A program made the position numbers and the translations under genes. From Candidatus Shapirobacteria bacterium (GTDB lineage Bacteria; Patescibacteriota; Microgenomatia; UBA12405; UBA6130), in the NCBI GenBank assembly GCA_027039485.1, contig JALWDZ010000026.1, forward strand, positions 1,093 to 65,092: DNA of 64,000 nt, in the 5' to 3' direction. Shown here piece after piece: positions 15,821 through 64,000 of the stretch (positions are counted from its first letter, which is position 1; the number at the start of each line of letters is the position of its first letter). The notes under the pieces were generated by a model. The model worked only from the letters and a program-made list of their open reading frames with translations, was not told where the DNA came from and did no database searches.

Positions 15821-15904
15821 CCAGGGGTGGCAGAGTGGTCAATTGCAACGGTCTGTAAAACCGTCGGGTTTATCCCTGCGGAGGTTCGAATCCTCCCCCC
15901 TGGA
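15821..15904 (+). tRNA. tRNA-Tyr (anticodon GTA), type II
   Basis: Acceptor CCAGGGG/CCCCTGG, anticodon stem ACGGT/ACCGT loop CTGTAAA, long variable arm, T-loop GGTTCGAATCC. Confidence 0.75.
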
Positions 15905-19632: not shown

Positions 19633-20020
19633 ATCTCAAATTCCAACCCCCCCTTCGGTAGGGGCAGGCAAATCCTAATTACCAAAATCCTAAACCCTAA
19701 ACAATGTTCAAATGATCAAAATTCAAATGTTCAAAACATTTCTTTCCTGTCATCCCGCCCTTTCTTATGAAAGAGCGGGATCTAGCCGAAGGTGCATGGA
19801 ATACTATATATTGCGCTCGCTCTGCTCGCTAGATTTTTACCCCGACGTTACGTCTTGGGGCTTCGCTAACGCTCAGAATGACATAGTTTAAGTGTTTTGG
19901 TCATTTGGTCATTTGGATTTTGAGCATTATTTAGGATTTAGGTCATTAGGATTTTGGATTTGTTATTCCTAGCTCCTAGTTCTTAGTTCCTAGTTCCATT
20001 TTCTAACTCCTAGACTCTTA
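19630..20020. repeat. nested-palindrome MITE/REPIN-like element with GC-rich core (core in reverse orientation)
   Basis: Arms caaatcctaattaccaaaatcctaaaccctaaac.../...ggatttaggtcattaggattttggatttg. Core gtcatcccgcc...cggggtaaaaatctagcgag...ctcagaatgac. 3' cctag-rich tract. Confidence 0.8.
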
Positions 20021-26329: not shown

Positions 26330-26811
26330 TGACTACATACATAATAACAGTTTTCGGAACAGTTTGCTTGGCAAATCGTTTCCGGACAACGCTGGCTTGA
26401 ATCGCTAATATCTACATCACCGCCATTTTCTAATTCAGCCCAGAGGCGAAAGCCATCGCCATCATTACTCACACAATAGCCGTAATGGTGGTTGCCTCCA
26501 AGAGGGTCATCAGGCACTTTGGTCATGTAGGTAGTATTGCCTTCTTGCCACTGGCTGCCAAAAAGTAGTGGGGGAGTGGGATAAGCCTGATGGTCGTTGT
26601 AATAAAGGCGAAGGCTATTTTTAATTTCCCAAAGATCTTGCTTCCGCTGGCTATCCCGGGCCCGCTGCCGAGCCGACATTAAATTAGGCAAAAGTATCCC
26701 GGCTAAAATAGCAATAATCGAGAGGACCACTAAAAGCTCAATGAGGGTAAACCCTTTTCGTCTCAGAAGGGTAAACCCTTTTTGCTTCGGAAGGGTAAAT
26801 CCTTTTTTCAT
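26326..26811 (-). CDS. type IV pilin (tandem paralog 3)
   Basis: KGFTLIELLVVLSIIAILAG, then RQRARDSQRKQDLWEIKNSLRLYYNDHQAYP. Confidence 0.7.
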   Translation of the reverse strand: MKKGFTLPKQKGFTLLRRKGFTLIELLVVLSIIAILAGILLPNLMSARQRARDSQRKQDLWEIKNSLRLYYNDHQAYPTPPLLFGSQWQEGNTTYMTKVPDDPLGGNHHYGYCVSNDGDGFRLWAELENGGDVDISDSSQRCPETICQANCSENCYYVCSQ

Positions 26812-27362
26812 GGAAGGCGAACGTTAGAACTAGTAACGCCAAAATTATATGTCTCACCGGCGCATTGGTAGCCATTATTATTATACTTATTATAATCAGG
26901 GTCATGGCTATTTTCCAAAACAGAAAAAAGTTTAAAATAGGTTCCGTCCGATTGGTAGCAATAGTGAAAACTACGCCGCGGATCCTGCGGTAACCGCTTC
27001 ATATAAACAACAGTGGCGTTATTAATATTTTCCTCGAAAGCATCTCCCCAATCTAGAACTGTATTTTGGGGACAATGGCGGTTAACAACAATTTTACCTG
27101 TCTCTTGGCCAGAACAATCAGTGCTTAAGGGGTAAGAGCGGTGATCGTTATAATACATTTCTAAGGCTCGGGCAATATTACTTAAGTCTGCCTTCCGTTG
27201 GGCATCGCGTGCTTTCTGCTGGCTAGTATGGTACTGACCAAAGCCAATGCTTGCCAAAATACCCAAAATAGCCATCACCACCAACAGTTCTATTAAAGTA
27301 AACCCTCTCCTCATTTTTTTATTGACCACAAGTGGCATCATAACAACAAGCGGTGCCCTCAC
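26808..27362 (-). CDS. type IV pilin (tandem paralog 4)
   Basis: RRGFTLIELLVVMAILGILASIG, then QKARDAQRKADLSNIARALEMYYNDHRSYP. Confidence 0.7.
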   Translation of the reverse strand: MRAPLVVMMPLVVNKKMRRGFTLIELLVVMAILGILASIGFGQYHTSQQKARDAQRKADLSNIARALEMYYNDHRSYPLSTDCSGQETGKIVVNRHCPQNTVLDWGDAFEENINNATVVYMKRLPQDPRRSFHYCYQSDGTYFKLFSVLENSHDPDYNKYNNNGYQCAGETYNFGVTSSNVRLP

Positions 27363-31694: not shown

Positions 31695-33479
31695 CTAATA
31701 TTTAGCCACCCGGAGAACTTCCTCCACGGTGGTAATACCCTCTAACGCCTTCAAATAGCCATCCTGCATCATCGTTACCATGCCCTCCTTTACAGCCGCT
31801 TTTTTAATTTCCTCGGCCGGCGCTTGTTTAAGGATAAGCTGCATAATTGCATTAGTCACCGGCAAAGTCTCAAAAATCCCAATTCGACCGTAATAGCCGG
31901 TAAAGTTGCACCCCTGGCAGCCTTTGCCGCGGTAAAGCTTTGGTTGGTCACCGGCTTTGGGGGGCCAAAGCGGGCCAAGCACTTTTTTCATTCCTTCAAC
32001 CACTTTTTCTGGCGGCTGGTAACTTTCCTTACAGTCATTATGGATCCGGCGGACAATCCGTTGGGCAACCACTGCGTTCAAAGCAGAAACTAGCAAAAAG
32101 GGCTCAACCCCCATATCAATTAACCGTGGCGCAGCTCCGGCAGCATCGTTAGTATGTAGTGTCGAAAAAACCAAGTGGCCAGTAAGGGCTGCCTCAACCG
32201 CCAGTTCAGCCGTCTCTTTATCGCGAATCTCGCCAACCATAATAATATCCGGATCCTGGCGCAAAAACGAACGCAGGGCCGACGCAAAAGTAAGCCCCGC
32301 CTGGGGATTTACCTGGACCTGGTTAACCCCTTTGATGTGGTATTCAACCGGATCTTCGATAGTCATCACGTTAACTTTGGTAGTGTTAATCTTAGAAAGA
32401 ACTGAATAAAGAGTAGTCGTTTTCCCGGCTCCAGTTGGACCGCAGACCACAATCATTCCGTGGGGGCGGCTAATGGCCTCTTGCAAATCGCGGAGTGTTT
32501 TCCCCCGCAAACCTAATTCTGGCAAGTCGGGAATTTTTTGCGTTTTCTTCAAAAGCCGCATAACTACCTTTTCGCCATAGACAGTCGGTGCTGTCGAAAC
32601 CCGGACGTCGATTTCCTGCCCATCACTGCGAAAAGTAAAGCGCCCATCCTGGGGCACCCGCTTTTCATCGATTTTCATATCGGCCAAAATTTTAATTCGG
32701 GAAACAACGGCATCATGGATCCGCCGCGGCAAAATAAGTTTCTCTTGCAAAATGCCGTCAATGCGGTAACGGACCCGGGTATCGCCCTCTTGGGGTTCAA
32801 TATGAATATCCGAAGCCCGGGCCTTGACCGCAAATTGCAAAATTGTCGAAACAACCTTGGCAATTGGCGCCTCGTGGATAATATTCTCCAGATGGTTAAC
32901 ATCCAAGACATTCTTTTGATAAGTTTTAGCCGTTTCCCCTAGGGCCTTAGTCACCTCGGCGGTAATTTCCTGGTTATAATGTTCGTCGATTGTCTCCTGG
33001 ATAAGCTTTTTATCAGCCAGGTAAGGCTCTATTTTTAAGCCTGTTTTCTTTTCCAAAAACTCCACCGTCTCCAAATCTAAAGGATTGGCCATAGCCACCG
33101 CCAGCTTTTTCTCTTTAGGGTCATAACGAAAGGGCACCACCAGATAATACTCGGCCACGCTTCGGGGAATAAAAGTAATGCTTTGGGGATCGAAAGCAAT
33201 TTCTTCTAAATCAGCATAGGGAACGCCCAAAAACTTCGCCTTAGCAGCTAGCAATTTCTTGGTGGGGATTAGATTTTCTTCATGAATAATATCTTCCACA
33301 TTCTTGCCGGTTTGAATTGCCTTTAGTTGAATATTTTTTACCTGGGCTGGCGAGAGCAGCTTCTCCTGGGCCAGAACGTCCAAAAGCGAGTGGGGCAGTT
33401 TTGTTTCTTCCATCACTTCCATTATAAACAAAATAAATCCCAAATCACAAGCACCCTGCCCCGACGGACGTCGGGGCAA
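31695..33479 (-). CDS. pilB: type IV pilus assembly ATPase PilB (GspE family)
   Basis: N-terminal GSPII domain, Walker A GPTGAGKTTT, tetracysteine CQGC..., 594 aa. Confidence 0.9.
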   Translation of the reverse strand: MPRRPSGQGACDLGFILFIMEVMEETKLPHSLLDVLAQEKLLSPAQVKNIQLKAIQTGKNVEDIIHEENLIPTKKLLAAKAKFLGVPYADLEEIAFDPQSITFIPRSVAEYYLVVPFRYDPKEKKLAVAMANPLDLETVEFLEKKTGLKIEPYLADKKLIQETIDEHYNQEITAEVTKALGETAKTYQKNVLDVNHLENIIHEAPIAKVVSTILQFAVKARASDIHIEPQEGDTRVRYRIDGILQEKLILPRRIHDAVVSRIKILADMKIDEKRVPQDGRFTFRSDGQEIDVRVSTAPTVYGEKVVMRLLKKTQKIPDLPELGLRGKTLRDLQEAISRPHGMIVVCGPTGAGKTTTLYSVLSKINTTKVNVMTIEDPVEYHIKGVNQVQVNPQAGLTFASALRSFLRQDPDIIMVGEIRDKETAELAVEAALTGHLVFSTLHTNDAAGAAPRLIDMGVEPFLLVSALNAVVAQRIVRRIHNDCKESYQPPEKVVEGMKKVLGPLWPPKAGDQPKLYRGKGCQGCNFTGYYGRIGIFETLPVTNAIMQLILKQAPAEEIKKAAVKEGMVTMMQDGYLKALEGITTVEEVLRVAKY

Positions 33480-33930
33480 ATTCTAATTACCAAAATCCTA
33501 ATCCGCCAGCTGGCGGACTAAACAAATTCAAATGACCAAAATTCAAATGCTCAAAAACATTGAAACTGTGTCATTCTGAGCGTTAGCGAAGCCCCAGGAC
33601 GTTCCGCCAGCTGGCAGAGTCGGGGTAAAAATCTAGCGAAGCGCATTAATCCCACACCTGACTAACTCTCATGCGCTCGCTCCGCTCGCTAGATCTTTAC
33701 CCCTACCGAAGGTGGATTTATTCCACCGAAGGGGGGCTTCGTCGCTTCGCTCCTCAGGATGACAAGGGGAGATGTCTTTTGTTTTGGTCATTTGATCATT
33801 AGGTAATTTGGTTATTGTTTAGGATTTGGGTCATTAGGATTTAGGATTTTGCTCAACCTAGTTCCTAGCTCCATTTGAACTTTTCACTTTCCCCTTCTTT
33901 CTCACTTTTCACTTTTCACTTAAACTTTTC
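33478..33930. repeat. nested-palindrome MITE/REPIN-like element, longest copy, core present as an inverted duplication
   Basis: Arms aaattctaattaccaaaatcctaatc.../...ggatttgggtcattaggatttaggatttt. Internal 230-nt imperfect hairpin built from two inverted copies of gtcatYctgag...gaagcccc...ggggtaaaRatctagcga. 3' cctag/cactttt tract. Confidence 0.8.
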
Positions 33931-48479: not shown

Positions 48480-49411
48480 AGCAGCTCTTGGCGCAATGGC
48501 TGTTGTTTAATTGCCCGTCGCAGCCAGCGCCATTGGGCAATAGTTGCTAAAGTAACCCGCGGGCGAATGAGGATATTTTTTTGCACGAAATTATACATTT
48601 GTCCCAAGAAATAGGGTATTTGCCACCAAGGGCGGGCTTTAATAATTGTTTTCTCCAACGCCAAAAGAACTTCCTGCTGCCGCCTTTCCCGCGCCAAATC
48701 ATTGCCTTCTTGGGGATTACTGCTTTTACGGGAACGCATATATTCCAAAGCTCGCTGGCCGCTAAAATGGTGCCAACCCTTTTGGAAACTTACCGTCCGG
48801 ACACCATGGCTGCCATCATCGCGGGGAAAATGGCTATCCCGAAAGCTCCTTTCCACATAAATATCTATTCCCCCCAAAAAATCAATCAAATCGCGCACAT
48901 TAGCCATCGTTAACAGGGCAACTTGGTCGATCTTCTGACCGGTTAGCCGCTCCACTGTCGTTTTCAACAAGCCAAAGGGATGTTGGGGATCGCGCCGGCG
49001 GCCATAATAATAAAGGGCGTTTATTTTTGTCCGCTGGTCCTCCAGCCATAAATCGCGGGGAAGAGAAAAAAGCAAGCTTTTACCCGTCTTGGTATTAACG
49101 GTGACCAAAAGAATGGTATCGGTCAAAAGGGTCGGGTTATCGGGCCGCTGGTCAAGGCCTAGCAACAAAAACGAATGGTATTGGTTTCTGTCAGGATGCT
49201 GCCAGCCCCATTTTAAATCATGATAGAGCGCCGCCGGCTTTAGATGTGCTCCCCGGGCAAACTGCCAACCGGCCCAAAAGGAAAGGAAAACAGCAAAAAA
49301 AATAACTACCCCAACAACCAATAAACTAAAAATGGCCAACTTTTTAGCAATTTGAACCAGAAAAGGGATTACTTTTTGGCCAACCATGATAAGGGTTTTC
49401 TTGTTCGCCAT
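48347..49411 (-). CDS. LytR-CpsA-Psr (LCP) family protein
   Basis: N-terminal TM then LGLDQRPDNPTLLTDTILLVTVN...SLPRDLW, typical LCP core. Confidence 0.65.
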   Translation of the reverse strand: MANKKTLIMVGQKVIPFLVQIAKKLAIFSLLVVGVVIFFAVFLSFWAGWQFARGAHLKPAALYHDLKWGWQHPDRNQYHSFLLLGLDQRPDNPTLLTDTILLVTVNTKTGKSLLFSLPRDLWLEDQRTKINALYYYGRRRDPQHPFGLLKTTVERLTGQKIDQVALLTMANVRDLIDFLGGIDIYVERSFRDSHFPRDDGSHGVRTVSFQKGWHHFSGQRALEYMRSRKSSNPQEGNDLARERRQQEVLLALEKTIIKARPWWQIPYFLGQMYNFVQKNILIRPRVTLATIAQWRWLRRAIKQQPLRQELLWQGDAAILETGIDPYYGSWILQPRRGDYGLIKQFFQTQLRHLQ

Positions 49412-50538
49412 ATCGTGGGTAATTCTAACAAATTCTTAGCTAACCACCAAAACGTTGCCGGCCATAATTTCAGCGGCGTAGTTTTCAAAAGATAACTAAA
49501 ATTGCGCCCCCGCTCTAAGAGGATCGGCCACCAATAACGGCGCCAGGTTCGAGAAGGATAGTTCTTGATTAGCAGCCACCACCAATTGCGCACCGTCATC
49601 CGCTGGCGCAAATTTCCCATCTTCCGGCTCGTGGCTCCACCCTGGTGATAAGCTACCAACTGGGGCAAAAAAAGCATCTGCCAGCCCCTTTCCCGCAACC
49701 GCAGAGCCAGATCGACATCTTCTAAATAAGCAAAAAAGCGTTCATCAAAACCGCCAGCAGCCAAAAAAGCGTCCCGGCGATAAACTACCGCCGCCCCATT
49801 AAGGCCATCCGCCAAATGCGGTTTTTTTAGCCAGGCTTTAAATTTTTTTCGTGCCTCCGACCATTTCCAACCATTGGCAATATTTTCCGCCCGACCCGGC
49901 AAAAAATACCGTAACCCTAAACTTTCAACCCGGCGGCCAGTTCGATCTAGCACTATTCCGCCAAAGGCGGCCACCCGCTGTTGCCGGTATTGCCATAGGA
50001 TTAGCTCTAAATTCGCCAGCCAATTATCAGCCAGGCGCACATCATCATTCAAGACCAAAAGATAATCGCCCCGGGCCGCCTTTGCCCCCTGATTCACCGC
50101 TCTCGCAAAACCAAGGTTTGTTTTATTAAAAATAGTTTTGATTACTATGCCAGGGGGTATGGAGAAGACGCTATCATCATGTTGGTTGTTCTCACCTTCA
50201 TTGTTGTTCCATGATTTTCTTCTCTCTTTTTTGTTTGGAATTTGAGGTTTGTAATTTTGATATTGTTTGTAATTTGCCTGCCTGCGCAGGCAGGGTGCTT
50301 GGTGCTTGGAATTTAATTCCTTGAGGAATTCTTTACTGCCATCATGAGAATTGTTATCAATGATGATTATTTCTAGGTTTTGTATTTGGTCATTTAAATT
50401 TTGATATTGTTTGTAATTTGCCTGCCTGCGCAGGCAGGGGATTTGGGATTTGGAATTTACAGCCCTAAAAAGGCTGTTGAGGCATTCTTGGAGAAGGTCT
50501 CGTCCCTGGAAATGGGGAATAATAACCGAAAGTTTCAT
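49369..50538 (-). CDS. glycosyltransferase family 2 carrying two in-frame repeat-derived insertions
   Basis: GT2 N-terminus (LSVIIPHF...CLNSL) and core (EIIIIDNNSHDGS, NLGFARAVNQG, ED motif). Two low-complexity inserts encode SKSQIPCLRRQANYKQYQN... Confidence 0.7.
   Translation of the reverse strand: MKLSVIIPHFQGRDLLQECLNSLFRAVNSKSQIPCLRRQANYKQYQNLNDQIQNLEIIIIDNNSHDGSKEFLKELNSKHQAPCLRRQANYKQYQNYKPQIPNKKERRKSWNNNEGENNQHDDSVFSIPPGIVIKTIFNKTNLGFARAVNQGAKAARGDYLLVLNDDVRLADNWLANLELILWQYRQQRVAAFGGIVLDRTGRRVESLGLRYFLPGRAENIANGWKWSEARKKFKAWLKKPHLADGLNGAAVVYRRDAFLAAGGFDERFFAYLEDVDLALRLRERGWQMLFLPQLVAYHQGGATSRKMGNLRQRMTVRNWWWLLIKNYPSRTWRRYWWPILLERGRNFSYLLKTTPLKLWPATFWWLAKNLLELPTIWRTRKPLSWLAKK
50140..50460. 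repeat. repeat-element-derived segment inside the GT2 gene (two copies of the palindrome CCTGCCTGCGCAGGCAGG plus ggatttgg k-mers)
   Basis: tttgatattgtttgtaatttgcctgcctgcgcaggcagg occurs twice (about 50268 and 50414). Near-identical to 53624..53900. Confidence 0.75.
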
Positions 50539-51596
50539 TGGCCGACCTTAAACTCAACGACATCGCCGTCTTTCATCAGATATTCCCTGCCTTCGCTGCG
50601 GACTTTCCCAGCCGCCCGAGCTTTTTCCCAACCCCCTAATTCCACAAAGGTTGGATAATCAACGACATCGGCCCGGATAAATTTTTTGGCAAAATCAGAA
50701 TGAATTGTCCCGGCCGCCGTTACTGCTGTTGCCCCCTGTCTAATCGTCCAGGCCCGGACCTCTTTCCGGCCGGCTGTCAAAAAAGAAATCAAGTTAAGCT
50801 TTTGATAAGCCAAGGCGACCAGCCGATCCAAGCCGGATGTTGCAAAACCTAGCTCTTGCAAATATGCCCGCCGTTCCGCCTCCGAAAAAGCTCCCAATTC
50901 TGCTTCAACCCGCGCCGAAAGGGGTAGAACTGGCTGCCAGCGAAAACCGGCTAAAATTTGCTCCCGATCTTTTAACTGCTCCTCACTCAAGTTGGCAACA
51001 TAAATCACCGGTTTGGCGGTCAGAAGAAACAGGCGCTGGCTCGCCTGGCGCTCCTCGGGCGTTAAGCCAACCTCACGCGCCGGTTGGCCTTGGTCCAAAC
51101 CCTGGCGCAATTTTTCCACCGCCCGCCAAAAAATTTTCTCCTCGTCGCTAGCTCCCGGCCGCGGCGGTTTTTGCTTTTCCAAAGTCTGCAAATCAGCCAA
51201 AAGCAACTCGTTTTCAATCACGGCAATATCATCAGCCGGGTTCTTTCCCGTCCGCGGTATCTGCTTATCATCAAAAAAGCGCACCACCTCAACAATCAAC
51301 GAAACCTCCCGAATATGGGCCAAAAATTGGTTTCCCAATCCCTCACCATGGGCCGCCCCCTTCACTAGGCCGGCAATGTCGACAAACTCCACCACCGCTG
51401 GCACTATTTTTTCCGTTTTGACAATTGCCGCCAGTTTTTCCAGGCGCGGATCGGGCACCGGCACAACTCCTGTATTAGGCTCAATCGTGCAAAAAGGATA
51501 GGGGGCCACACCAGCTACCTGCTTTTTTAAAAGGGCATTAAAAAGAGTAGATTTGCCAACATTGGGCAACCCGACAATCCCCACGCTTAATTTCAT
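50535..51596 (-). CDS. ychF: ribosome-binding ATPase YchF (Obg-family GTPase)
   Basis: MKLSVGIVGLPNVGKSTLFNAL G1 motif, C-terminal TGS domain. Confidence 0.9.
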   Translation of the reverse strand: MKLSVGIVGLPNVGKSTLFNALLKKQVAGVAPYPFCTIEPNTGVVPVPDPRLEKLAAIVKTEKIVPAVVEFVDIAGLVKGAAHGEGLGNQFLAHIREVSLIVEVVRFFDDKQIPRTGKNPADDIAVIENELLLADLQTLEKQKPPRPGASDEEKIFWRAVEKLRQGLDQGQPAREVGLTPEERQASQRLFLLTAKPVIYVANLSEEQLKDREQILAGFRWQPVLPLSARVEAELGAFSEAERRAYLQELGFATSGLDRLVALAYQKLNLISFLTAGRKEVRAWTIRQGATAVTAAGTIHSDFAKKFIRADVVDYPTFVELGGWEKARAAGKVRSEGREYLMKDGDVVEFKVGQ

Positions 51597-51632
51597 TTTC
51601 CAATTTTACCACCCCCGTTTACCCTGTTATAA

Positions 51633-52949
51633 TTGCCTATGCTTGCCAATATTTTCATCAATTTCTTGGCCCAAGGTTATCTTTTCCTCATTTCGTTTTT
51701 TACCCTGCCAGCCATCCTCCACTATCTCGGCAAGGAACAATTCGGCTTTTTAGCCTTAGCCGCCGCTCTCCTCAATTACGCCACTACTTTCGACTTTGGC
51801 TTTGGGGCCGCCCTTACCCAACGGGTAGCTTACCTCCACTCCCAAAACCGCCGCCAGCAACTAAAAACCACCATCCAAACTGGCTTTTTAACCTACACTC
51901 TCCTAGCCGCCGCCATTATCATTTCCCTTGATCTTTTCGCCCAGCCTATCCTTCACCTCTTTAACCTTTCACCCCAACTTTTTGGCCAGGCCCAGAAAAT
52001 CATGCCCCTCATCGCCCTTAACATCGGCCTTTACTTCCCCACCATTTTTGCCGCCAGCATTTTCCAGGCCGAAAACCATTTCTGGCGCTATAATTTGCGC
52101 ACTTTTATCGTTGGCACTGCCAATACCCTCGGCGTTTTTTTCCTCGCTAGCCGCCACTTTCCCCTCATTGCCATTTTCCAACTCCAAACCGCCGCCTTAC
52201 TTCTTACTTTAGCCCTCGATTTCTGGCTCCTCCGCTCCTACCTGGCTTATCCCCACTTTTCCCGCCGCCATTTTCTTCAACTCGGCCGCTTCGCCCTTTT
52301 TAAATTTCTGAGCAACACCGCCGGCCAAATCAGCACCCAATTCCCCAAATTTTTCCTTGCTTCCCTGGTCAATGTCGCCAGCGTCAGTTATTTCACCGTC
52401 CCTTTTTCTCTCATCCAAAAACTAGGGGTCATCCTTTCCCAAATCTACATCGTTTTCTTCCCCAAGATAGCCCACCTCAACGGCCGCCAGCAATCGGCAA
52501 AAATCCGCCGCCTTTTCCAACGGGGCCAACTTCTGGTCGCCATCATTACCATCCCTGCTATTGCCTTGGGCTTCTGGCTTGGGCCACTTTTCCTCAACTG
52601 GTGGCTGAAAGATCCCCAATTTGTCCGGCAAATCTTGCCCGTCTTTAATATTCTTCTCGTTTACTTTCTGGTCCACGCTTTCACGGCCATTCCGGTGGCT
52701 ATTCTTGAAGGCATTAACCAACCCCAACTGCCGGCTCTTTTAGCTTGGATTAATGCCGCTATCACCATCGGCGGCGGTTATTTCCTTATCAAACGCCTAG
52801 CCGCTCCCGGCGCTGCTCTCACTCTTCTCGGTTACACCCTTGTCACCGGACCTTCGGTTATCCTTCTCGCCTGGCGCAGCTTAAAAATCCCAAAGCCAGC
52901 GCCAAAGCCGCCACTGGACCTTAGCTCTAGTCAACCGCTCCCGCAATAA
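51633..52949 (+). CDS. oligosaccharide flippase (Wzx/MOP superfamily) polysaccharide biosynthesis protein
   Basis: 438 aa, about 12-14 TM, typical Wzx organisation. Confidence 0.6.
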   Translation: MPMLANIFINFLAQGYLFLISFFTLPAILHYLGKEQFGFLALAAALLNYATTFDFGFGAALTQRVAYLHSQNRRQQLKTTIQTGFLTYTLLAAAIIISLDLFAQPILHLFNLSPQLFGQAQKIMPLIALNIGLYFPTIFAASIFQAENHFWRYNLRTFIVGTANTLGVFFLASRHFPLIAIFQLQTAALLLTLALDFWLLRSYLAYPHFSRRHFLQLGRFALFKFLSNTAGQISTQFPKFFLASLVNVASVSYFTVPFSLIQKLGVILSQIYIVFFPKIAHLNGRQQSAKIRRLFQRGQLLVAIITIPAIALGFWLGPLFLNWWLKDPQFVRQILPVFNILLVYFLVHAFTAIPVAILEGINQPQLPALLAWINAAITIGGGYFLIKRLAAPGAALTLLGYTLVTGPSVILLAWRSLKIPKPAPKPPLDLSSSQPLPQ

Positions 52950-53987
52950 TTGGGCAAAAGCATTGCCCAAAAAAGTAAAACTTAAAACAAGACGATAAAG
53001 CCAAAGCGGGTAATGGTGCTTTCGTAAAAATAGGAAAAGCGAGGCAAAATAGCGCCGGTAAAATTGCCACCGCTCTTTCATTTTCCAATTTTTCCAACTC
53101 CCACCGCCAAAGTGAATTATTTCCGCCGCTGGCACCACCACCAACTTACCCAATCCTAATTTTTTAACTCGGTACGACCAGTCAACATCTTCAAAAAAGA
53201 AAAAATAATCCTCGTCAAGGCCTTTTGTTTTTTGCCAAACTGTCCGCCGAGCCAGCAAAGCTGCCCCCGGCAATTGTTCAACTGGCGTTGGCATTTTGCT
53301 CACCTGGCTAAAGACCAGCCACTTTAGCGGCGTGGCTGTCACCAGCCAGCGGCCGGCCAGGCTATGGTAAAACGCCATTTGCCAAAGGTTAGGAAAACGC
53401 ATATAGTAGCGCTGCTGAAAACTGCCGTCGGGGTTTAATAACCTAGGAGACACGGCGGCCACATCGCCATGTTTTTCTAAATAGCCCACCATCTTCTCTA
53501 AGGCTCCCTTCTTAACAATAGTATCTGAATTAAGAAGAAGGATATATTTGCCTCTGGCAATTCTTATTCCTTGGTTGTTAGCCTTTGCAAAACCAAGGTT
53601 TGTTTTATTAAAGATAGTTTTAATGGCTATGCCCTGGGGTATAGAAAAAATACCACTGTGTCGGTTATTTTCACTTTCACTGTCATTCTGAGATTTTCTT
53701 CTTTTCTTTTTGTTTAGAATTTGAGATTTGGGATTTGGAATTTGGGATTTGGAATTTAATTCCTTGAGGAATTCTTTACTGCCATCATGAGAATTATTAT
53801 CAATGATGATTATTTCCATGTTTTGAATTTGGTCATTTAAATTTTGATATTGTTTGTAATTTCCCTGCCTGCGCAGGCAGGGAATTTGGGATTTGGAATT
53901 TACAGCCTCAAAAAGGCTGTTGAGGCATTGTTGGAGGAGATCCTTAGTGTTGTAATTGACAATGATAATGGAGAGGAGAGGACTCAT
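52881..53987 (-). CDS. glycosyltransferase family 2 carrying in-frame repeat-derived insertions (paralog of 49369..50538)
   Basis: LSIIIVNYNTKDLLQQCLNSL, EIIIIDNNSHDGS, NLGFAKANNQG, DEDYFFFFEDVDW. Inserts encode SKSQIPCLRRQGNYKQYQN... and SQIPNPKSQILNKKKRRKS... Confidence 0.7.
   Translation of the reverse strand: MSPLLSIIIVNYNTKDLLQQCLNSLFEAVNSKSQIPCLRRQGNYKQYQNLNDQIQNMEIIIIDNNSHDGSKEFLKELNSKSQIPNPKSQILNKKKRRKSQNDSESENNRHSGIFSIPQGIAIKTIFNKTNLGFAKANNQGIRIARGKYILLLNSDTIVKKGALEKMVGYLEKHGDVAAVSPRLLNPDGSFQQRYYMRFPNLWQMAFYHSLAGRWLVTATPLKWLVFSQVSKMPTPVEQLPGAALLARRTVWQKTKGLDEDYFFFFEDVDWSYRVKKLGLGKLVVVPAAEIIHFGGGSWKNWKMKERWQFYRRYFASLFLFLRKHHYPLWLYRLVLSFTFLGNAFAQLLRERLTRAKVQWRLWRWLWDF
53624..53900. 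repeat. repeat-element-derived segment inside the GT2 gene (palindrome CCTGCCTGCGCAGGCAGG, tandem gggatttggaattt)
   Basis: Near-identical at nucleotide level to the 50140..50460 segment (e.g. gaatttaattccttgaggaattctttactgccatcatgagaatt). Confidence 0.75.
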
Positions 53988-55231
53988 TTTTGCCGCAAAA
54001 TTCGGTAGACAAACAAATTATTAATCACTAGCCCATACGCCTCGCCAACGACCATCGCCCAGGCGGCTCCGACAACCCCCCAATGGGCAATCAAATACCA
54101 ACCACCAACAAGCATCACCAAAAAATTGGAAAAAGCCCAAGGCAAAAACTGCTTTACCCGGTCTGAATTATGAATTATATTGCCCGGCAAAGCGTTGACG
54201 AAAAAGAGAATAAGCGCCCCACCTAAAATGCGGAAAAGGGGCACCGCCGGGAGATAGCGGGGACCATAAAGAATCAAAACCAGCAGGCGGCCAGCAAAAA
54301 TAAAAACCGCGCTTAAAGGAAGAGCCAAAAGCAAAAGGCCCAACCAAAGGCGCAAATATAATCTTGGCAAATCACGGTGGCGCTGACGCAAAAGGCGCGC
54401 CGAGAGTGGGAAAAAAGCCACCGCTACCCCTTGGGGAATAACAATGCCCGCCTCGACAAATTTCCCCGCTGCCCCATAAATGCCCGCCCAATAATTTCCC
54501 AAAAGGCGGCCAACCAAAATAATTGGCAGGCGCAAATAAAAAACAGCCAGCACTAAAAGAACGGCAAAAACCCAAGCTTGGCTTAATGCTCGGCGGGCAA
54601 ATTGCCAATCTAAACGCCAAGACCAATGGGGCAAACGGTAAAACAACAGTAAAAAGCCAAAAAGAAAAAGGTAGGCCAACAAATAACCGGCCAAAACTAC
54701 CGCCAGAGGTTGGTGCCACCAAGCTGCCAGGACGGAAAACAAGCCCGAGCCAAAAGACATAGCCAAGGTTGCCCCAGCGGCGAACCAGGGGCGTTCCCGG
54801 CCATTTTCTACCGCTCCGATAATATTGAGCAAATTGGCCGGGGCCAGGGCCGCTTCGAAAACAAACAGCAGCCAAAGCCCCCGCCCGCGTACACCGATAA
54901 GCCAGGCAGCTAGCAAAGTTATAACCACGGTGGCCACGGCCAGCCACAAACGCAACGGCAACAGCTTGGCCAAAAAATCCGGCGCCTCCCGAGGATGGCG
55001 GGCAACCCAGCGCAACGCCAGGCGCTCCAAGCCAAAGTCAGCTAAGGGGTAAAAATTGTAGCCAAAGCTAATCGTCCACAACAAAAGGCCAAAATCCGGC
55101 ACCGCCAGTAATCTTGCCAGCAATAGGAAAAAAAGAAAACCTAAAGCTCGAGCAGCGATTTGCGCCCCAGAAAGGACGGCGCTGTTTAACAAGAGCTTTT
55201 TCATTCCTGCGAAAATAATTGGTCTTGCCAC
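53984..55231 (-). CDS. polysaccharide-biosynthesis polytopic membrane protein (Wzx/MATE-like flippase)
   Basis: 415 aa, about 12 TM, N-terminal [16 protein letters not shown] typical of MOP flippases. Confidence 0.5.
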
Positions 55232-56256
55232 CCTGGCGGCAGGGGTAATTTTAAGAGTTGGAACGCCCGCCGGGTGAGCATCCGCCCCCGCGGTGTCCGT
55301 TTCAAAAAGCCGGCCTGCAAGAGAAACGGCTCGTAAACTTCCCGAACTGTCCCCACATCTTCATTAAGCATCGCCGCTAAAGTTTCCAGCCCGACCGGCC
55401 CGCCCTGATGCTCTCGGGCCAATGTTTGCAAGAGATGACGATCAGTCTTGGTCAACCCCTGTTCGTCAATAGCCATCATTGCCAATGCCTCGCGGACCAC
55501 ATTTACTGTTACCTGGCCATTAGCCTCAATTTCGGCAAAATCGCGCACCCGCCGCAAAAGGCGATTGGCAATGCGGGGCGTGCCCCGGGAGCGGCGGGCA
55601 ATCTCTAAAGCGGCCGCCTCACCAATAGCCAAGCCCAAAACTCGCGCCGAACGGATGACGATTTTTTGCAAATCCTCGTTCGAATAAAAAGCTAACCGCT
55701 GGACCAATCCAAAACGGTCGCGCATCGGCGACGAAAGCAGGCCAATTCGAGTGGTTGCTCCAATCACCGTAAAATGGTTCAAATCAAGCCGTAAACTCCG
55801 CGCCGCCGGGCCTTTACCCAAAACCAAATCCAGCTTAAAGTCTTCCATCGCCGGATAAAGCGTTTCTTCAACTGATTTATGGAGGCGATGAATTTCGTCG
55901 ATAAAAAAAATGTCGCCTTCTTCTAGCGAAGTTAGAATTGAGGCTAAATCGCCGGCCCTTTCCAGAGCTGGCCCCGAAGTGACCCGAATATCCACCCCCA
56001 TTTCCTTTGCCAAAAGGGTAGCCAAGGTAGTTTTTCCCAACCCCGGCGGCCCATAAAAAAGGAGATGGTCCAAGGGCTCGTGGCGCTTCCGGGCTGCATT
56101 GATGATAATCCGCAGCTGGCGCTTTAAATTCGGCTGGCCAATAAAATCCCGCAAACTCTGCGGCCGCAAGGAAAGCTCGGCCCCCTTTTCTTCTTCGTCG
56201 ACTAATTTTTTCAAGACATCAGCGCCCATAACTTTTCCCCAATTTTTGTAACGCAA
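55201..56256 (-). CDS. ruvB: Holliday junction branch-migration helicase RuvB
   Basis: AAA+ Walker [12 protein letters not shown], sensor and winged-helix C-terminus. Confidence 0.9.
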
Positions 56257-56803
56257 ATTTTACTATTTCCTCAGTTGCCGTCACTTCTTGGGGCAAATCC
56301 CGCAAAGCTTGGTCGATTTCCGCCCGTTGGAAGCCCAAATTGCGCAAAGCTTGATAAACCTCTTCATTGCCGCCCTGGCCGGTACGCAAATCGAGGCTTT
56401 TCACCTCGCCCACTTTAGTTTTCAAATCGACAATAATCCGCTGGGCGCCCTTGCGACCAATTCCTTTCACCTGCTGAAAAAAAGCCACATCGGCTTCGGC
56501 AATTGCCCGCAAAATTCGCTCGCCATTGCCAACGGCAAAAATTTCTAAAGCTGTCCGGGGACCAACGCCGCTTACCGAAAGCAAAAGCTGAAATACTTCC
56601 CGGTCGCGGGCTTGCAGAAAGCCATAAAGATCGCTACTGTTTTCGGCTACATAATGGGCAATAAAAAGCTTGGCTTCCTTCCCTACTGCCAGTTTGCCTA
56701 AATCACGCCGGGAAAGAAAAACAAACCAGCCAATTCCCATTGTTTCAATTTCCACCCAGCCATCCCCTTTATTAGTCACCGGCCCCCGCAGACTGCCAAT
56801 CAT
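56219..56803 (-). CDS. ruvA: Holliday junction DNA-binding protein RuvA
   Basis: MIGSLRG start, OB domain, two HhH motifs ([12 protein letters not shown]...[13 protein letters not shown]), C-terminal domain III. Confidence 0.8.
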
Positions 56804-56889
56804 ATTTCTATTATAGCAGGCTGACGCCAACTACCAACAAACAACTGACCAACAACAGAAAGTAATTCCATTTACCTCGTCATGCTGAA

Positions 56890-57250
56890 ACCTACCTGTG
56901 CAGGCAGGCAATACTAAAATCCTAAATTCAAAATCCTAAACTATAAACAAATTCAAATGACCAAAATCCAAATGTTCTAAACATTTCTTTTTCTTTGCCT
57001 TTTTCTTTTGTTTTGGTCATTTGGTTATTTAATCATTTGGTAATTGTTTAGGATTTGGGTCATTAGGATTTAGGATTTGTTTGTGATTTGGTGTTTGGGA
57101 TTTGGAATTTGGTGCTTTTTTGACCTAGTTCCTCCAACCTAGCTCTTAGTTCCACTTTAACTTCTTTTCCACTTTACACTTGAATTTTTCACTTCCTTAG
57201 CCCTTCGCCCTTAGCTCTTAGCCCCTTCTTACCTAGTTCCTAGTTCCAAT
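56890..57250. repeat. nested-palindrome MITE/REPIN-like element (no GC core; degenerate CCTG...CAGG palindrome at left end)
   Basis: Arms ...aaaatcctaaattcaaaatcctaaactataaac.../...ggatttgggtcattaggatttaggatttg. Contains gtgtttgggatttggaatttgg, the same k-mers as the GT inserts. Long cctagttcctag tract. Confidence 0.8.
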
Positions 57251-58246
57251 CACCTTCTTCAGCACTCTGCCCAATTTAACCGGACTATGGCGGAGGCGCA
57301 TATTTTGCTTTTCAATAATGGCCACATCGGCAACCAAAGGTTTAGGTTGTAATTTTCTATCCACTTTAATTGGCTGGGAGTGCTCATAGCGATAAAGCCG
57401 CCATACTTTAGCCAACTGTTTCTTTGGTAAAGCCTGCCAATCAGGCATAATAACAACATCAAAAGGCCGATTCACCCGCAAATAACGGCGGAAAATTGCT
57501 AGATAATCTCGCTGGGTGCCCCACCGGCTTTCGTTAGCTACTGTCATCAAATTAGCAATCAAAATTTTCTTGGCTCGGCTTTGGCGGTAAGCAGCCGCCA
57601 TGCCCCGTGGCAAAAAATTAGCCAGCAATGACCCGTACAAACTGCCCGGGCCGATAATGATAACCTGGCTTTCTTTAATCGCCTGAATAGCCTCCGGATT
57701 TGCTCGTACCCGTGGCTCCAGCCAAATCTTCTTTACCCGGTCGGTTGACATCCGCTGCAAATCCAAATAATGTTCGCCGCGGTACTCTTGGCCGCTTAAA
57801 GTCCGAAAAGCCAAATCTGCCGGCTCGGTGGCTACCGGCACTACCCGCCCGGCTAACTTGACACCCATTAGCTCCTGAAAAAATTTGTCGGCCTGATTAA
57901 TATCCCCCAATTTCTCCACCAAAAAGCGAAAGAAACTGTTGCCAAAATTTCTTCCCCGCCCATCTCGATAGCGCAACATTTCTTGCCACAGCTTTTTCCT
58001 TTTTCCATCCCGCCAAAGAGAAATCAATGCCCGCCAATAATCAGAAAACGCTAAAAGCTGCCCTCTCTCATCGGTGCGCATCCGCCCAGTATCACCGCCG
58101 CTATCAAAAGTAGTTACCACCGAAACAATATTCTGGAACCCAGCCCGAAGGAGGGCCCTGTTAGTAACCGGCATGCCCGACCCGCCGCCGACAGTACAAA
58201 TCCTCATTACTCCATTATAACGCCCCAATGCTAAATAAAATCTCAA
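57233..58246 (-). CDS. yvcK: YvcK/CofD-like gluconeogenesis-factor family protein (UPF0052)
   Basis: MRICTVGGGSGMP...VTTFDSGGDTGRMR signature. The true start is probably the internal MRICTVGGG. Confidence 0.75.
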   Translation of the reverse strand: MRFYLALGRYNGVMRICTVGGGSGMPVTNRALLRAGFQNIVSVVTTFDSGGDTGRMRTDERGQLLAFSDYWRALISLWRDGKRKKLWQEMLRYRDGRGRNFGNSFFRFLVEKLGDINQADKFFQELMGVKLAGRVVPVATEPADLAFRTLSGQEYRGEHYLDLQRMSTDRVKKIWLEPRVRANPEAIQAIKESQVIIIGPGSLYGSLLANFLPRGMAAAYRQSRAKKILIANLMTVANESRWGTQRDYLAIFRRYLRVNRPFDVVIMPDWQALPKKQLAKVWRLYRYEHSQPIKVDRKLQPKPLVADVAIIEKQNMRLRHSPVKLGRVLKKVIGTRN

Positions 58247-58665
58247 ACAAATCCTAAATCCTAATGACCCAAATCCTAAACCTGCCTGCGCAGGCAGGTA
58301 AATCTAAAATTCAAATGACCAAATGACCGAAACCTTGTCACCCTGAACGAAGCTGAAGGCGGAGTGAAGCCCCAGCACGTTCCGCCAGCCGGCGGAGTCG
58401 GGGTAAAGATCTAGCCGAAGGCGCATGGAAAAGGATATTAGGGTATCAGGTTAATTTTCTTTTTTCTTTTTCTTTCTTTCTCTGTTCTTCTGATCTCTGA
58501 TTCTCTTTCCCTGATTACCTAATTCTTCCTGATATTCTACATTATTTAATCCCCTTTTCTTTACTGAGTTCTAAGTTCTGAATATCTAAATGTTTAGAAC
58601 ATTTGGATTTTGGTCATTTGATATTGTTTAGAATTTAGGATTTAGGATTTTGAATTTATCTTCTT
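58245..58665. repeat. nested-palindrome MITE/REPIN-like element with perfect palindrome and GC-rich core
   Basis: caaatcctaaatcctaatgacccaaatcctaaacctgcctgcgcaggcaggtaaatc... Core gtcaccctgaacgaagctgaaggcggagtgaagcccc...cggggtaaagatctagccgaaggcgcatgg. Right arm ...ggattttggtcatttgatattgtttagaatttaggatttaggatttt. Confidence 0.8.
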
Positions 58666-58686
58666 CAGATGCTGTAAAATTAGAGG

Positions 58687-59163
58687 ATGAAAATTTTGGG
58701 CATTGATCCCGGCTTAGCGGCAACTGGTTGGGCAATTGTTGAAAAAGCCAAAACGCCCCTCCTTGGCGACTATGGCTGCATCACTACCGCTAAAACTGCT
58801 TCTTTTGCCAGCCGCCTTGATGCTATTTTCCGCAAGAGCCAGGCAATTATCCGTCAATACCGGCCTGATATTTTAGCTATCGAAGAGCTATTTTTTGCCA
58901 AAAACAGCAAAACTGCCATTAATGTGGCCCAGGCCATGGGGGTGGTGAAGCTTGCTGGCCAACAGGCCAATATTCCCGTTATCGGCTACACCCCCCTCCA
59001 CATTAAAATTGCCATCGTTGGTTACGGCCGGGCCGACAAGCACCAGGTAGAATTTATGGTCAAGAAAATTCTCCACCGCCGGGAAAGCATCAAGCCTAAC
59101 CATGCCGCCGACGCCGTTGCTGTCGCCCTGACCCACTTATTTCAAAACCCCCAGCTAAAATGA
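58687..59163 (+). CDS. ruvC: crossover junction endodeoxyribonuclease RuvC
   Basis: MKILGIDPGLAATGWAIVE (catalytic Asp7), RNase H-like fold, 158 aa. Confidence 0.85.
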   Translation: MKILGIDPGLAATGWAIVEKAKTPLLGDYGCITTAKTASFASRLDAIFRKSQAIIRQYRPDILAIEELFFAKNSKTAINVAQAMGVVKLAGQQANIPVIGYTPLHIKIAIVGYGRADKHQVEFMVKKILHRRESIKPNHAADAVAVALTHLFQNPQLK

Positions 59164-61989: not shown

Positions 61990-62594
61990 TCCTTATAATA
62001 CGCATCTTCTGCCCAATTACGAGGATTATTAACAATATATTGGCGAATGTTTTCCAATGATTTCTGATTTCTAATAATTCGTTCGTAATAATTGCGTTGC
62101 CAAATTTTGCCGGCAAACGGCGGCCAATTATGTTGTTTTACATTGCGGATATATTCGTTGGTGGTCATCCGTTTAAACCATGAAATATACCGCCCCAACC
62201 CTTCATATGTATTCGGGATATTTCGTTTCGTCTGTAGGGGCGATTCCGTGTAATCGCCCTGTTGATCCGGCGATTCCGTTAACGGGCGAAAACATGGTTT
62301 CGCCAAATCATCCGGGCGAAAACATGGTTTCGCCCCTACAATTTGAATAATGCCGTGGATGTGGTTGGGCATAATAATAAATTCATCCAATTGTATCCGA
62401 CGATATTTCGCCGGTAATTTTTGCCACCAACGGTACACCATTCTGCCAATTTTGTTCATTACCATTTCGCCATTTTCTATTCGACCAAATAAATTCACCC
62501 GATTATGCACACAAATGGTAATAAAATAATATCCGGGTTGGCGATAATCGTAATTTGGCAACCTAATTGTCCTCCTATGAAAAATTTTTGCCAT
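61986..62594 (-). mobile_element. REP-associated tyrosine transposase (RAYT; IS200-like Y1 transposase) with an in-frame palindromic insertion
   Basis: HuH motif IMPNHIHGII, C-terminal WQRNYYERIIRNQ...YIVNNP block typical of 'transposase IS200-like' (PF01797) REP-associated enzymes. Duplicated 24-nt palindrome gggcgaaaacatggtttcgcc at 62270..62340 encodes AKPCFRPDDLAKPCFRP. Confidence 0.75.
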
Positions 62595-62602
62595 CTAATT
62601 CG

Positions 62603-64000
62603 TTAATGTATTAATTTTTTAAGAATTAATGTGTATCCTAGATATCCTACTGATCCCATTAAGGTCATCAGACTTATAAACAACCCAATGTAGAAAAACC
62701 GCTGGGGCCAGAATTCGACAATCAATTCATAATTTTCCCGCCCGCCAACATCGCTGGGTTTGATATACCAACTATTGGCATAGCCATTCACCAAATAATG
62801 CCGGTCTTCGGCAATTGGTTGTTTGCCCCAGGTTTCAAAAGTGGCCGGTTCCAAAAAGGTCATCCGGTGCGTGCCTTCTTTTATCTCGCCATTAAAATAA
62901 CTAGCCACCTCCGGCCCGTATCCCTTATTCTTCAAAAACCACCCCGTCACCCTCGCCGCCACTTTCCCCACAATTCCCATTAAATTATTTCTATTTGTAT
63001 CGCTCGCGCTAGCGAGCATGTTTCTATTTGTTTCGCCCCGTAAGGGCATATTTCGCGCCGAAGGCGCATATAACTTCCACCCTTTATGAAAACTTTCTGA
63101 AAACACCAGCGTATACGGCCCCTTCGCCCCGGTTACTTTTACCCGATATTTTGTCGGATTGATTTTGACAAACTCTATTTTAGGAAACCCTTTTTCAGTT
63201 TCATGAGCCGAAGACAGATTTATATCGTCCGAAGGGCTTGTATCGTCCCGCTTGCGGGACATATTTCTATTTGTATCGCGAGCGTCAGCGAGCTTATTTC
63301 TATCTATATCTTGTTTGTAATTTAGAATCTGTTTATTAATTTTCGAATTCGTTAATAAATTAATTGACTTTAATATAATCTCCGGTACTATAACCCGCCT
63401 CACTTCCAATTTCGCCAACGCCCCCACCTCAACCCCTTTTAATACCAATCGCCCTTCATCGGCAAAATTGCCAGCTTTAAAATAAGCAACAAAACTATTT
63501 CCGTTTGTATCGCCCGCAGGGCGTATTTCGCGAGCTCCGCTGTGGCGGGGCGAGCTTGTTTCGCGAGCGCCAGCGAGCATGTTTCCATCTATTTCTTTAA
63601 TTATTTTCCATTCCTCACCTTCTTTCCTTTCCTCTATTAAAATCTCCCCCGCCGGCTTTACCCCCTTCTTTAGCCGCCCTTCCACCCGATACCACTCTCT
63701 TCCCCTATATTCACCTATCCTTAGGGCAAAATTATTTTCTTCCTTTTTATCGCGAGCGTTAGCGAGCGTGTTTCTGTCTGTATCGCCCGCAGGGCTTGTA
63801 TCGTCCCGCTTGCGGGGCATGTTTCTATTTGTATCGCTCGCGTTAGCGAGCATATTTCCATTTATATCTATCAAATTTTTACTTAATCCCCTTATCGGTA
63901 AAACTATTTCCTGTTTTCCCGCCTTAAAATACCTCTCCCCCCACTCTTGCCACCCACTTATATCGCCCGAAGGGCTTGTATCGTCCCGCTTGCGGGACAT
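62603..64000 (-). CDS. hypothetical tail-anchored protein heavily invaded by in-frame REP-like units (5' partial; ORF continues past the window end)
   Basis: C-terminal TM (FFYIGLFISLMTLMGSVGYLGY). Peptide NMLA.ASDTNRNMPRKRDDTSPAGD recurs at least 5 times, each encoded by the same ~85-nt triple-hairpin DNA unit. Confidence 0.35.
   Translation of the reverse strand: MSRKRDDTSPSGDISGWQEWGERYFKAGKQEIVLPIRGLSKNLIDINGNMLANASDTNRNMPRKRDDTSPAGDTDRNTLANARDKKEENNFALRIGEYRGREWYRVEGRLKKGVKPAGEILIEERKEGEEWKIIKEIDGNMLAGARETSSPRHSGAREIRPAGDTNGNSFVAYFKAGNFADEGRLVLKGVEVGALAKLEVRRVIVPEIILKSINLLTNSKINKQILNYKQDIDRNKLADARDTNRNMSRKRDDTSPSDDINLSSAHETEKGFPKIEFVKINPTKYRVKVTGAKGPYTLVFSESFHKGWKLYAPSARNMPLRGETNRNMLASASDTNRNNLMGIVGKVAARVTGWFLKNKGYGPEVASYFNGEIKEGTHRMTFLEPATFETWGKQPIAEDRHYLVNGYANSWYIKPSDVGGRENYELIVEFWPQRFFYIGLFISLMTLMGSVGYLGYTLILKKLIH
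62985..63880. repeat. array of dispersed ~85-nt REP-like triple-hairpin units (copies near 62990, 63230, 63490, 63750, 63960)
   Basis: The unit is catgtttctatttgtatcgctcgcgNtagcgagcat, then gtcccgcttgcgggacat, then gcccgaagggc; each block has a 4-7 bp GC stem. Confidence 0.75.

Follow-up and report, generated by a model that had tools for sequence, protein, structure and literature searches.

In-frame repeat arms and an 18-nucleotide palindrome in two loops of paralogous family-2 glycosyltransferases from Candidatus Shapirobacteria

The stretch of DNA considered here (the window) comprises 64,000 nucleotides (nt) of a Candidatus Shapirobacteria bacterium (NCBI GenBank assembly GCA_027039485.1, contig JALWDZ010000026.1, positions 1,093 to 65,092 of the forward strand) and contains two paralogous genes for glycosyltransferases of family 2 (GT2), referred to as GT2a and GT2b (Table 1). 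The 5' third of GT2b carries two in-frame inserts, and these are most likely tolerated selfish repeat DNA absorbed from the dispersed repeats of the same genome. A preliminary description made from the sequence alone had proposed an in-frame repeat insertion in both paralogues, and this is correct: the two genes share 201 nt at 93% identity. On sequence comparison the shared DNA belongs to a family of dispersed intergenic repeats and is not private to the two GT2 genes, which goes beyond that description.

GT2b is an intact gene and, judging from its sequence, its product is probably a functional enzyme. The protein matches PF00535 at 85.3 bits (cut-off 23.3) and PF13641 at 50.1 bits (cut-off 27). 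A search of 5.8 billion proteins returned thousands of homologues, mostly of 290-330 amino acids (aa), and alignments of GT2b were built with 19 and with 71 sequences; GT2b keeps the residues D63, N64, S66, N153, D155, E266 and D267, which are invariant columns of the homologue alignment. The AlphaFold2 model based on the 71-sequence alignment has a beta-alpha-beta core, a mean predicted local distance difference test score (pLDDT) of 91.1 and a predicted template modelling score (pTM) of 0.88. The Pfam matches, the NSD (DxD-type) and ED motifs and the modelled Rossmann-like fold make GT2b a predicted GT-A-fold member of GT2. The only weak blocks of the model, residues 31-50 (pLDDT 63-72) and 81-120 (pLDDT 55-81), are the two inserts. 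The gene context, read from the syntenic contigs L002 and L004, places the GT2 genes in a surface-polysaccharide gene cluster.

Both inserts lengthen loops of the enzyme and are missing from most of the 71 homologues. Loop 1 (alpha1-beta2) has 33 aa in GT2b, where the median of the homologues is 12, and for loop 2 (alpha2-beta3) the corresponding lengths are 56 aa and 19. Translation of the inserts is predicted to give surface loops that are hydrophilic and poorly ordered and, by analogy with the general GT-A architecture, both loops would be expected to face away from the active site. The palindrome that had been placed near 53868 and read as IPCLRRQG lies within insert 1, where the minus strand does encode IPCLRRQG. 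The tandem repeat said to encode NSKSQIPNPKSQI was recovered in insert 2 by Tandem Repeats Finder (TRF), which reports an array of period 7 with 5.6 copies and 87% matches (53719-53757) or, alternatively, of period 14 with 2.3 copies and 100% matches (53726-53757); the array is translated as NSKSQIPNPKSQI. Towards its C-terminal end insert 2 is an older loop extension, which GT2b has in common with GT2a and with the orthologue on L002 and which is conserved in all three. The GC content is 0.31-0.38 over the shared GT2 segment versus 0.46 for the window. An intein, an intron or a known RNA element was considered for the inserts and rejected, as the inserts are short, in frame and without an Rfam match: in a scan of the whole window against Rfam 15 only tRNAs reached the gathering threshold, and positions 49000-59000 gave zero matches at E <= 1.

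Table 1. Coordinates, within the 64,000-nt window, of the two GT2 genes, the inserts, the genes between the paralogues and the intergenic inverted-repeat elements
Feature	Position	Strand	Remarks
GT2b, family-2 glycosyltransferase, 368 aa	52881..53987	-	Open reading frame (ORF), Pfam, AlphaFold2 model
Insert 1, residues 29-57, VNSKSQIPCLRRQGNYKQYQNLNDQIQNM, alpha1-beta2 loop	53817..53903	-	Repeat arm of 69 nt + 18-nt palindrome
Native GT2 beta2-alpha2 segment EIIIIDNNSHDGSKEFLKEL, separating the two inserts	53757..53816	-	Conserved columns E58, D63, N64, S66
Insert 2, residues 78-119, NSKSQIPNPKSQILNKKKRRKSQNDSESENNRHSGIFSIPQG, alpha2-beta3 loop	53631..53756	-	First ~52 nt from repeat arm
18-nt perfect palindrome CCTGCCTGCGCAGGCAGG, read CLRRQ in GT2b	53864..53881		Extends to 24 nt perfect, 53861-53884
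Tandem array of heptamers within insert 2 (plus strand: ATTTGGG/ATTTGGA)	53719..53757	-	TRF
Insert-region stretch NSKSQIPCLRRQGNYK	within 53631-53903	-	
Recent gene-conversion tract common to GT2b and GT2a, residues ~17-84	53740..53934	-	~95% nucleotide identity
GT2a, paralogue with the same module, 389 aa	49369..50538	-	Palindromes 50421-50438 (insert 1), 50277-50294 (insert 2)
ychF GTPase gene, between the GT2 paralogues	50535..51596	-	Pfam MMR_HSR1 + YchF-GTPase_C on contig L004
Wzx-type flippase (MatE/Polysacc_synt), between the GT2 paralogues	51633..52949	+	ORF; Pfam on contig L004
Inverted-repeat element without palindrome; one long hairpin	15598..15775		Fold of 15598-15745: -32.4 kcal/mol, z = -3.98
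Inverted-repeat element, core with other GC hairpins (GTCATCCCGCCCTTTC..GAAAGAGCGGGATC)	19655..19967		Intergenic
Inverted-repeat element in which other palindromes are nested (TGCCCCGACGGACGTCGGGGCA, TCCGCCAGCTGGCGGA)	33465..33858		Intergenic
Inverted-repeat element upstream of ruvA, decayed palindrome (56891-56908, 2 mismatches)	56891..57112		Intergenic
Inverted-repeat element; left arm with exact palindrome 58281-58298, right arm the best match to the GT2 inserts	58235..58665		Intergenic

The source of the inserts is indicated by five inverted-repeat elements of the window, each of which has two inverted arms of about 80 nt and a variable core, in some cases with GC hairpins. The intergenic elements are AT-rich and are built from heptamers of the AAATCCT type. 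An nhmmer profile made from the ten intergenic arms only matches 53904-53816, nearly all of insert 1, with E = 0.003, and it gives weaker matches to the other GT2 inserts. Insert 1 without its 18-mer (69 nt) aligns end to end, over 68 nt, with the arm at 58580-58665, with a score of 59 versus 22.6 +/- 3.6 for shuffled sequence (z = 10; none of 300 shuffles equalled the score), and the same arm also aligns, with z = 9, with the initial 52 nt of insert 2. The alignment of the arms sets the GT2 inserts alongside the intergenic copies, and TAA in the GT2 frame of an intergenic arm is CAA or another sense codon in the genic copy. The homology to the arm, together with the separate 18-mer, indicates that insert 1 consists of one arm (23 codons) and the palindrome (6 codons). 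Exact copies of the palindrome occur in the window at 50277, 50421, 53864 and 58281 and a copy with two mismatches at 56891, where 0 are expected (100 shuffles). The two that lie outside the GT2 genes (58281 and 56891) are both intergenic, inside AT-rich heptamer elements.

[quoted passage not shown] At the edges of the arms the heptamer context mimics direct repeats and blurs any reading of target duplication. The cores of the elements (19745-19800, 33560-33650 and 58340-58430) share further modules, namely hairpins of the GTCAT(C/T)C(C/T)G... type and (A/G)ATCTAGC(C)GAAG(G)(C/T)GCAT, and in other lineages of the Candidate Phyla Radiation (CPR) such core modules form in-frame coding sequence of GT2 loops, read as SCHPE.. 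and RHPD.. peptides. On contig L001, from a sister assembly of the same sample, two arms of the window type (3548-4032) flank a gene of PF05635 ('23S rRNA intervening sequence protein', a four-helix bundle), and the N-terminus of that gene product, MTKYQNSKQYNLEERT, is encoded by arm-like sequence. These hints suggest that the intergenic elements may derive from, or carry, PF05635 genes. As a general cargo of the elements the gene was rejected; it is present in one L001 copy only and tblastn finds none in the window or at other loci.

GT2a and GT2b are 48% identical overall at the protein level. Sliding nucleotide identity reaches 93-97% at nt ~55-250 of GT2b (window ~53934-53740), is 70-83% beyond this tract up to the NLGFA motif, and falls to 30-50% further 3'. 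The proportion of synonymous differences (pS) is 0.73 in codons 1-16 (beta1), 0.13 in codons 17-28 (alpha1), 0.15 in codons 29-57 (insert 1) and 0.10 in codons 58-77 (beta2-alpha2), and it rises to 0.61 in codons 78-119 (insert 2), 0.72 in codons 120-145 (beta3 region) and 0.83 in codons 146-300 (the rest). The sharp edges of identity, and the low pS inside the tract versus the high pS outside, show a bounded and recent gene conversion. The high similarity between GT2a and GT2b is this gene-conversion tract, which includes genuine GT2 beta2-alpha2 coding sequence. The neighbourhood was also described correctly at the outset: the Pfam matches of the syntenic, near-identical contig L004 place ychF and a Wzx flippase between the paralogues, and the shared segment bridges about 3.4 kb (start-to-start spacing of 3443 nt).

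Contig L004 comes from an independent assembly in which GT2b is 100% identical over 442 nt. The GT2a of L004 has GT2b-type bases where the GT2a of the window differs, so that exchange between the paralogues is ongoing. A third GT2 gene, P0011 on L001, has a near-identical insert 1, lacks insert 2 and differs in its C-terminal half. The GT2 gene at 2618-3637 of contig L003 has a GT2b-like 5' module with ruvB and a flippase upstream, and a P0011-like 3' half with DUF5674 and PMT_2 downstream, which suggests a chimera formed by recombination (deletion or fusion) through the shared module.

Beyond the window, the 18-nt palindrome is widespread in the Patescibacteria (CPR). The genome-wide search recommended in the preliminary description was carried out on one genome per species (596 Gb) and found at least 118 loci, where arithmetic gives about 9 for a random 18-mer. 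At least 46 of the 80 loci listed bear Patescibacteria names, including WWE3, Uhr-, Beckwith-, Gottesman-, Woese-, Kaiser-, Nomura-, Yonath- and Zambryskibacteria, Saccharibacteria, Paceibacterota and Dojkabacteria. The remaining listed loci belong to other metagenome-assembled genomes (MAGs); among those checked, several from GC-rich taxa have the look of matches by chance, and the copies that were read in Bacteroidota are intergenic. A control scan of metagenome contigs that left the loop free (CCTGCCTNNNNAGGCAGG) found 122 occurrences, 60 of which have the loop GCGC and no more than 3 any other loop. The flanks of 123 copies are unrelated, except for a purine at position -1 (194 of 246, symmetrised) and a pyrimidine after the palindrome. 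Copies inside ORFs of at least 150 aa number 68 of the 123, and the genes that bear them include those for EF-Ts, GatB, ArgRS, a UvrD-like helicase, HtrA and two superoxide dismutases (SODs). A Woesebacteria GT2 has the bare 18-mer in the alpha1-beta2 loop, the same loop that holds insert 1 in GT2b. In other CPR genomes intergenic palindromes lie amid heptamer-like arrays specific to the genome (ATTTTCA, CTTAACT, TCCTTAA and TAACGAC; L084 1120, L005 6405, L116 7190 and L029 6370), which points to a general association of the palindrome with such arrays. Two possible origins gained no support. A phage vector found no favour in a scan of viral contigs, whose 25 matches fall mostly on contigs of 58-67% GC without CPR-type context and were judged background; and a palindrome formed as the footprint of two 9-bp transposon ends is unsupported in ~0.93 Mb, where isolated half-sites are no more frequent than chance and no pair flanks a gene.

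Where it could be checked, in GatB and in a tRNA-Gln copy, insertion of the palindrome is precise, at exactly 18 nt and without target duplication. The GatB protein encoded on L033 reads CGCKNDPD-LPAQAG-EKRPNVNVCPVC, and in 36 homologues the spacer at this point has precisely six residues fewer (CGCKNDPD-EKRPNVNICPIC is one example). In the DNA, exactly 18 nt have been added at GA/C with zero duplication and zero loss, so that the target-site duplication of a MITE is absent from the 18-mer at this site. The SOD on L083 likewise has extra loop residues, including DLPAQAG, relative to a solved SOD. Three GatB genes of different lineages have the palindrome or a relic of it at the identical codon: the exact 18-mer (L033 ~4497), a variant whose loop has 7 nt, CCTGCCTACCGGACAGGCAGG, and a copy that has decayed, CCTGACTACGCAGGCAGG (L148 P0171 and L149 P0193). 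Either this site is hot or old copies of the palindrome are decaying in place. In five CPR loci (L042 6792-6809, L031 1735, L041 3540, L046 372 and L112 728) the palindrome follows about nt 9 of a tRNA-Gln-like sequence. ARAGORN finds an intact tRNA-Gln near the palindrome in all five, adjacent in L042 and L046 and 250-400 nt away in the others. Removal of the 18-mer from L042 makes a second tRNA-Gln callable; in four of the five loci the palindrome-bearing sequence is merely a fragment.

The reading frame of the insertion is also not random. All three frames of the palindrome are open and without a stop codon, and within ORFs it is read as LPAQAG in 50 cases, as PACAGR in 12 and as CLRRQ in 6 (p = 1e-11); an independent metagenome set gives 24, 7 and 6, respectively. 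A bias of this kind despite three open frames argues for selection on the peptide. GT2b reads the palindrome in the rarest frame, CLRRQ. Persistence mainly in the LPAQAG frame is expected of selfish DNA that is filtered by selection in gene-dense genomes.

The same two loops have been refilled in related genomes. In the L002 orthologue (identified by the synteny of ruvB, flippase and GT2) and in the L003 gene, the flanks align base for base with the window, and the site of insert 1 is occupied by an unrelated GC hairpin of about 50 nt (GTAGGTCGCCAGCATCAGCTCCTCCGACG..CGTCGGAGCG..TCTGATG.CTGGCTCCC) between the matching flanks. Insert 2 of L002 holds GTCATCCCGCTCTTTC..GAAAGGGCGGGATC, a hairpin that is found intergenically in the window at 19745. 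Among the 71 homologues loop 1 is long in 20 and loop 2 in 10; the homologues with long loops, about a quarter of the set, carry lineage-specific low-complexity peptides (for example PITNHQPPIT, SCHPESSSRHPD and LPAGKAG) resembling what heptamer repeats or hairpins would give on translation. One repeat is often present in both loops of the same homologue (P0033 and P0041). The recurrence of lineage-specific repeats in both loops suggests that these are recurrent sites at which a genome's own repeats land or survive.

A mechanism in several steps would account for these observations. An intergenic repeat arm would have entered two permissive GT2 loops, and the palindrome would then have inserted secondarily into the arm, as in the intergenic arms. 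Homologous recombination (gene conversion) over the tract of ~195 nt, which keeps the module near-identical among GT2b, GT2a and the third GT2 gene of the sister assembly, would have spread the composite, and the survivors would be copies that are free of stops and of a length divisible by three. The arms and the palindrome may have been copied by an enzyme that uses hairpins of single-stranded DNA as its substrate, or through recombination among repeat copies. A broader and more tentative proposal, which we consider possible though somewhat short of even odds, is that CCTGCCTGCGCAGGCAGG is an active, tiny mobile or enzymatically made unit of 18 bp that is placed precisely in genes, tRNA genes and intergenic repeats by machinery common to the Patescibacteria, and that together with heptamer arms it remodels the surface loops of CPR proteins, with the GT2 loops as one landing site.

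Several points weigh against tolerated selfish DNA as the explanation. The low copy number of the palindrome, 1-3 per CPR contig of 0.6-0.8 Mb, is unusual for a selfish repeat. No mobilising enzyme has been identified, and the ORFs of the window were not screened for transposases. No close GT2 allele with an empty site was found; a search with the N-terminal 156 aa of GT2b gave only distant GT2 fragments (<=48% identity) and did not recover the query protein. The repeated GC hairpins at one loop of the orthologues could mean a functional requirement or a hot spot, and the same could hold for the palindrome variants at one GatB site in three lineages. Finally, the proportion of nonsynonymous differences (pN) between GT2a and GT2b in insert 2 is 0.20, below the pS of 0.61, and this could mean constraint on the peptide, an estimate made shaky by the A-rich low complexity of the sequence.

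The last point leads to the alternative of co-option, in which selection would keep the inserts as loops with a function in the enzyme; the basic-then-acidic NKKKRRKSQNDSESENN, for instance, could serve in membrane or partner binding or in tuning specificity. The low pN, the conservation of the C-terminal part of insert 2 in GT2a, GT2b and the L002 orthologue and the recurrence of long loops in 10-20 of the 71 homologues would all fit such a role. However, the orthologues have unrelated sequence where the repeat-derived parts sit, the model has low confidence at these same parts, the inserts are homologous to non-coding intergenic arms, and most homologues do without these loops, which makes co-option unlikely.

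The GC hairpin might instead act in the mRNA, for instance by being cut by an RNase, by affecting stability or by making translation pause between alpha1 and beta2, in which case any hairpin sequence would be selected there. The hairpin formed by the palindrome in GT2b RNA is stable (-17.9 kcal/mol, z = -3.95) and the surrounding A-rich RNA is otherwise unstructured; moreover, this place is taken by other GC hairpins in orthologues, and the 18-mer of the Woesebacteria GT2 falls within the same loop. However, most homologues have no hairpin there and the 18-mer is found in dozens of unrelated genes at varied positions. The strong frame bias points to selection on the peptide and not on the RNA, and no Rfam family matches. 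A role in the mRNA is therefore improbable, more so than co-option.

The heptamer tract could also be a phase-variation switch in which slippage by 7 or 14 nt shifts the frame of a surface-glycan glycosyltransferase. A unit of 7 nt is not divisible by 3, TRF counts 5.6 copies in the tract at period 7 (a perfect 14-mer at 2.3 copies), and the gene lies within the surface-polysaccharide cluster. Phase-variable repeats are perfect tracts that vary in length, whereas the units here are few and imperfect (87% matches) and the independent assembly L004 matches the tract at 100% identity. In addition, GT2a differs in sequence at that position and no frameshifted allele was seen in the assemblies compared, so that a switch is very unlikely. 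An assembly artefact (repeat collapse or a chimera of the paralogues) is hardly credible: L004 does stop exactly at the GT2b palindrome, a typical assembly break at a repeat with which assemblers struggle, but the contig of the window spans both GT2 genes with both frames intact, the two modules differ at ~9 positions and by a 36-nt indel, and independent assemblies reproduce the full GT2a and the available part of GT2b.

Tolerated selfish DNA thus remains the preferred explanation, and it has a counterpart in the Rickettsia palindromic elements (RPEs; Ogata et al. 2000, 2002), which are outlined in PMC10969869 as single units of ~100-150 bp described from Rickettsia only. Like the RPEs as presented in that source, the repeat considered here is dispersed, has intergenic copies as well as in-frame copies in unrelated intact genes, and encodes a peptide compatible with the fold (PMC10969869). 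It differs in being a composite of a 69-nt AT-rich heptamer arm and an 18-nt GC palindrome, in its Patescibacteria host and in a palindrome that spans many classes at low copy. The GT2 inserts would thus work like RPEs by analogy, the likeness being one of behaviour.

Neurospora mitochondrial DNA contains 18-bp 'PstI palindromes', which are mobile GC-rich hairpins. In yeast mitochondria GC42 is a mobile GC cluster of 42 bp that targets AG dinucleotides (PMC4478555). The palindrome resembles the fungal mitochondrial clusters in that both are short GC hairpins in AT-rich DNA with the stem conserved more than the loop, variable presence and occasional genic copies (PMC4478555). However, the fungal clusters are organellar, while the 18-mer lies mostly in bacterial genes, without target duplication, preceded by a purine and followed by a pyrimidine.

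Repetitive extragenic palindromic (REP) sequences and bacterial interspersed mosaic elements (BIMEs) are small GC palindromes with a GTAG or CGTC tag and a high copy number that are mostly extragenic and depend on RAYT transposases (PMC3733652). The palindrome shares with them its small size and GC richness, the presence of some copies in genes and the proposed movement as single-stranded DNA hairpins (PMC3733652), but it has no GTAG or CGTC tag (123 copies), is found 1-3 times per contig of 0.6-0.8 Mb and lies in ORFs in 68 of 123 cases. A different hairpin, at the GT2 site of L002, begins GTAGG. DNA uptake sequences within coding regions have a density of about one per kb and are products of point substitution (PMC2817400). 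They are likewise short conserved genic motifs with a bias towards tolerated frames and a preference for variable parts of proteins (PMC2817400). In contrast to the hundreds to thousands of uptake sequences per genome, the 18-mer is sparse, and it represents 18 nt added relative to the homologues. As in other cases of gene conversion between paralogues in surface-polysaccharide genes, GT2a and GT2b have a sharp, near-identical tract within otherwise saturated paralogues and there are mosaics such as the L003 gene. This is ordinary except that the tract carries repeat insertions.

Among the papers that could be searched, none has the sequence of the palindrome or its peptide and none ties the Patescibacteria to MITE or REP elements. 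The paralogue conversion is thus the ordinary side of the case, and an exact six-codon palindrome across the Patescibacteria is unusual. To our knowledge, bacterial proteins that carry selfish DNA in frame have been described mainly from Rickettsia, and the GT2 inserts would represent the same phenomenon in the small, gene-dense genomes of the CPR. Three layers would meet at one site: an AT-rich arm specific to the lineage, a six-codon palindrome, and a paralogue conversion that spreads the composite. This is one way to account for the odd loops of low complexity in the CPR glycosyltransferases that were examined, as well as a reason for assembly breaks at the repeat, and LPAQAG, PACAGR and CLRRQ provide a searchable marker for such insertions. 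If a dedicated enzyme places the palindrome, exact insertion of 18 bp without duplication would be mechanistically new.

Other features of the window include six head-to-tail tRNA genes at 1285-1745, two tRNA genes on the minus strand at 2877-3070 and a further tRNA gene at 15821-15904, directly downstream of a repeat element. A 24-nt tandem repeat with about 3 copies (consensus AGGGTAAACCCTTTTTGCCTCAGA) is present at 26744-26817 and a 20-nt tandem repeat at 63031-63071. A GGGCGA..TCGCCC hairpin occurs twice, at 62238-62259 and 62314-62335, and near the end of the window GTCCCGCTTGCGGGAC is found at both 63245-63260 and 63983-63998, 738 nt apart.

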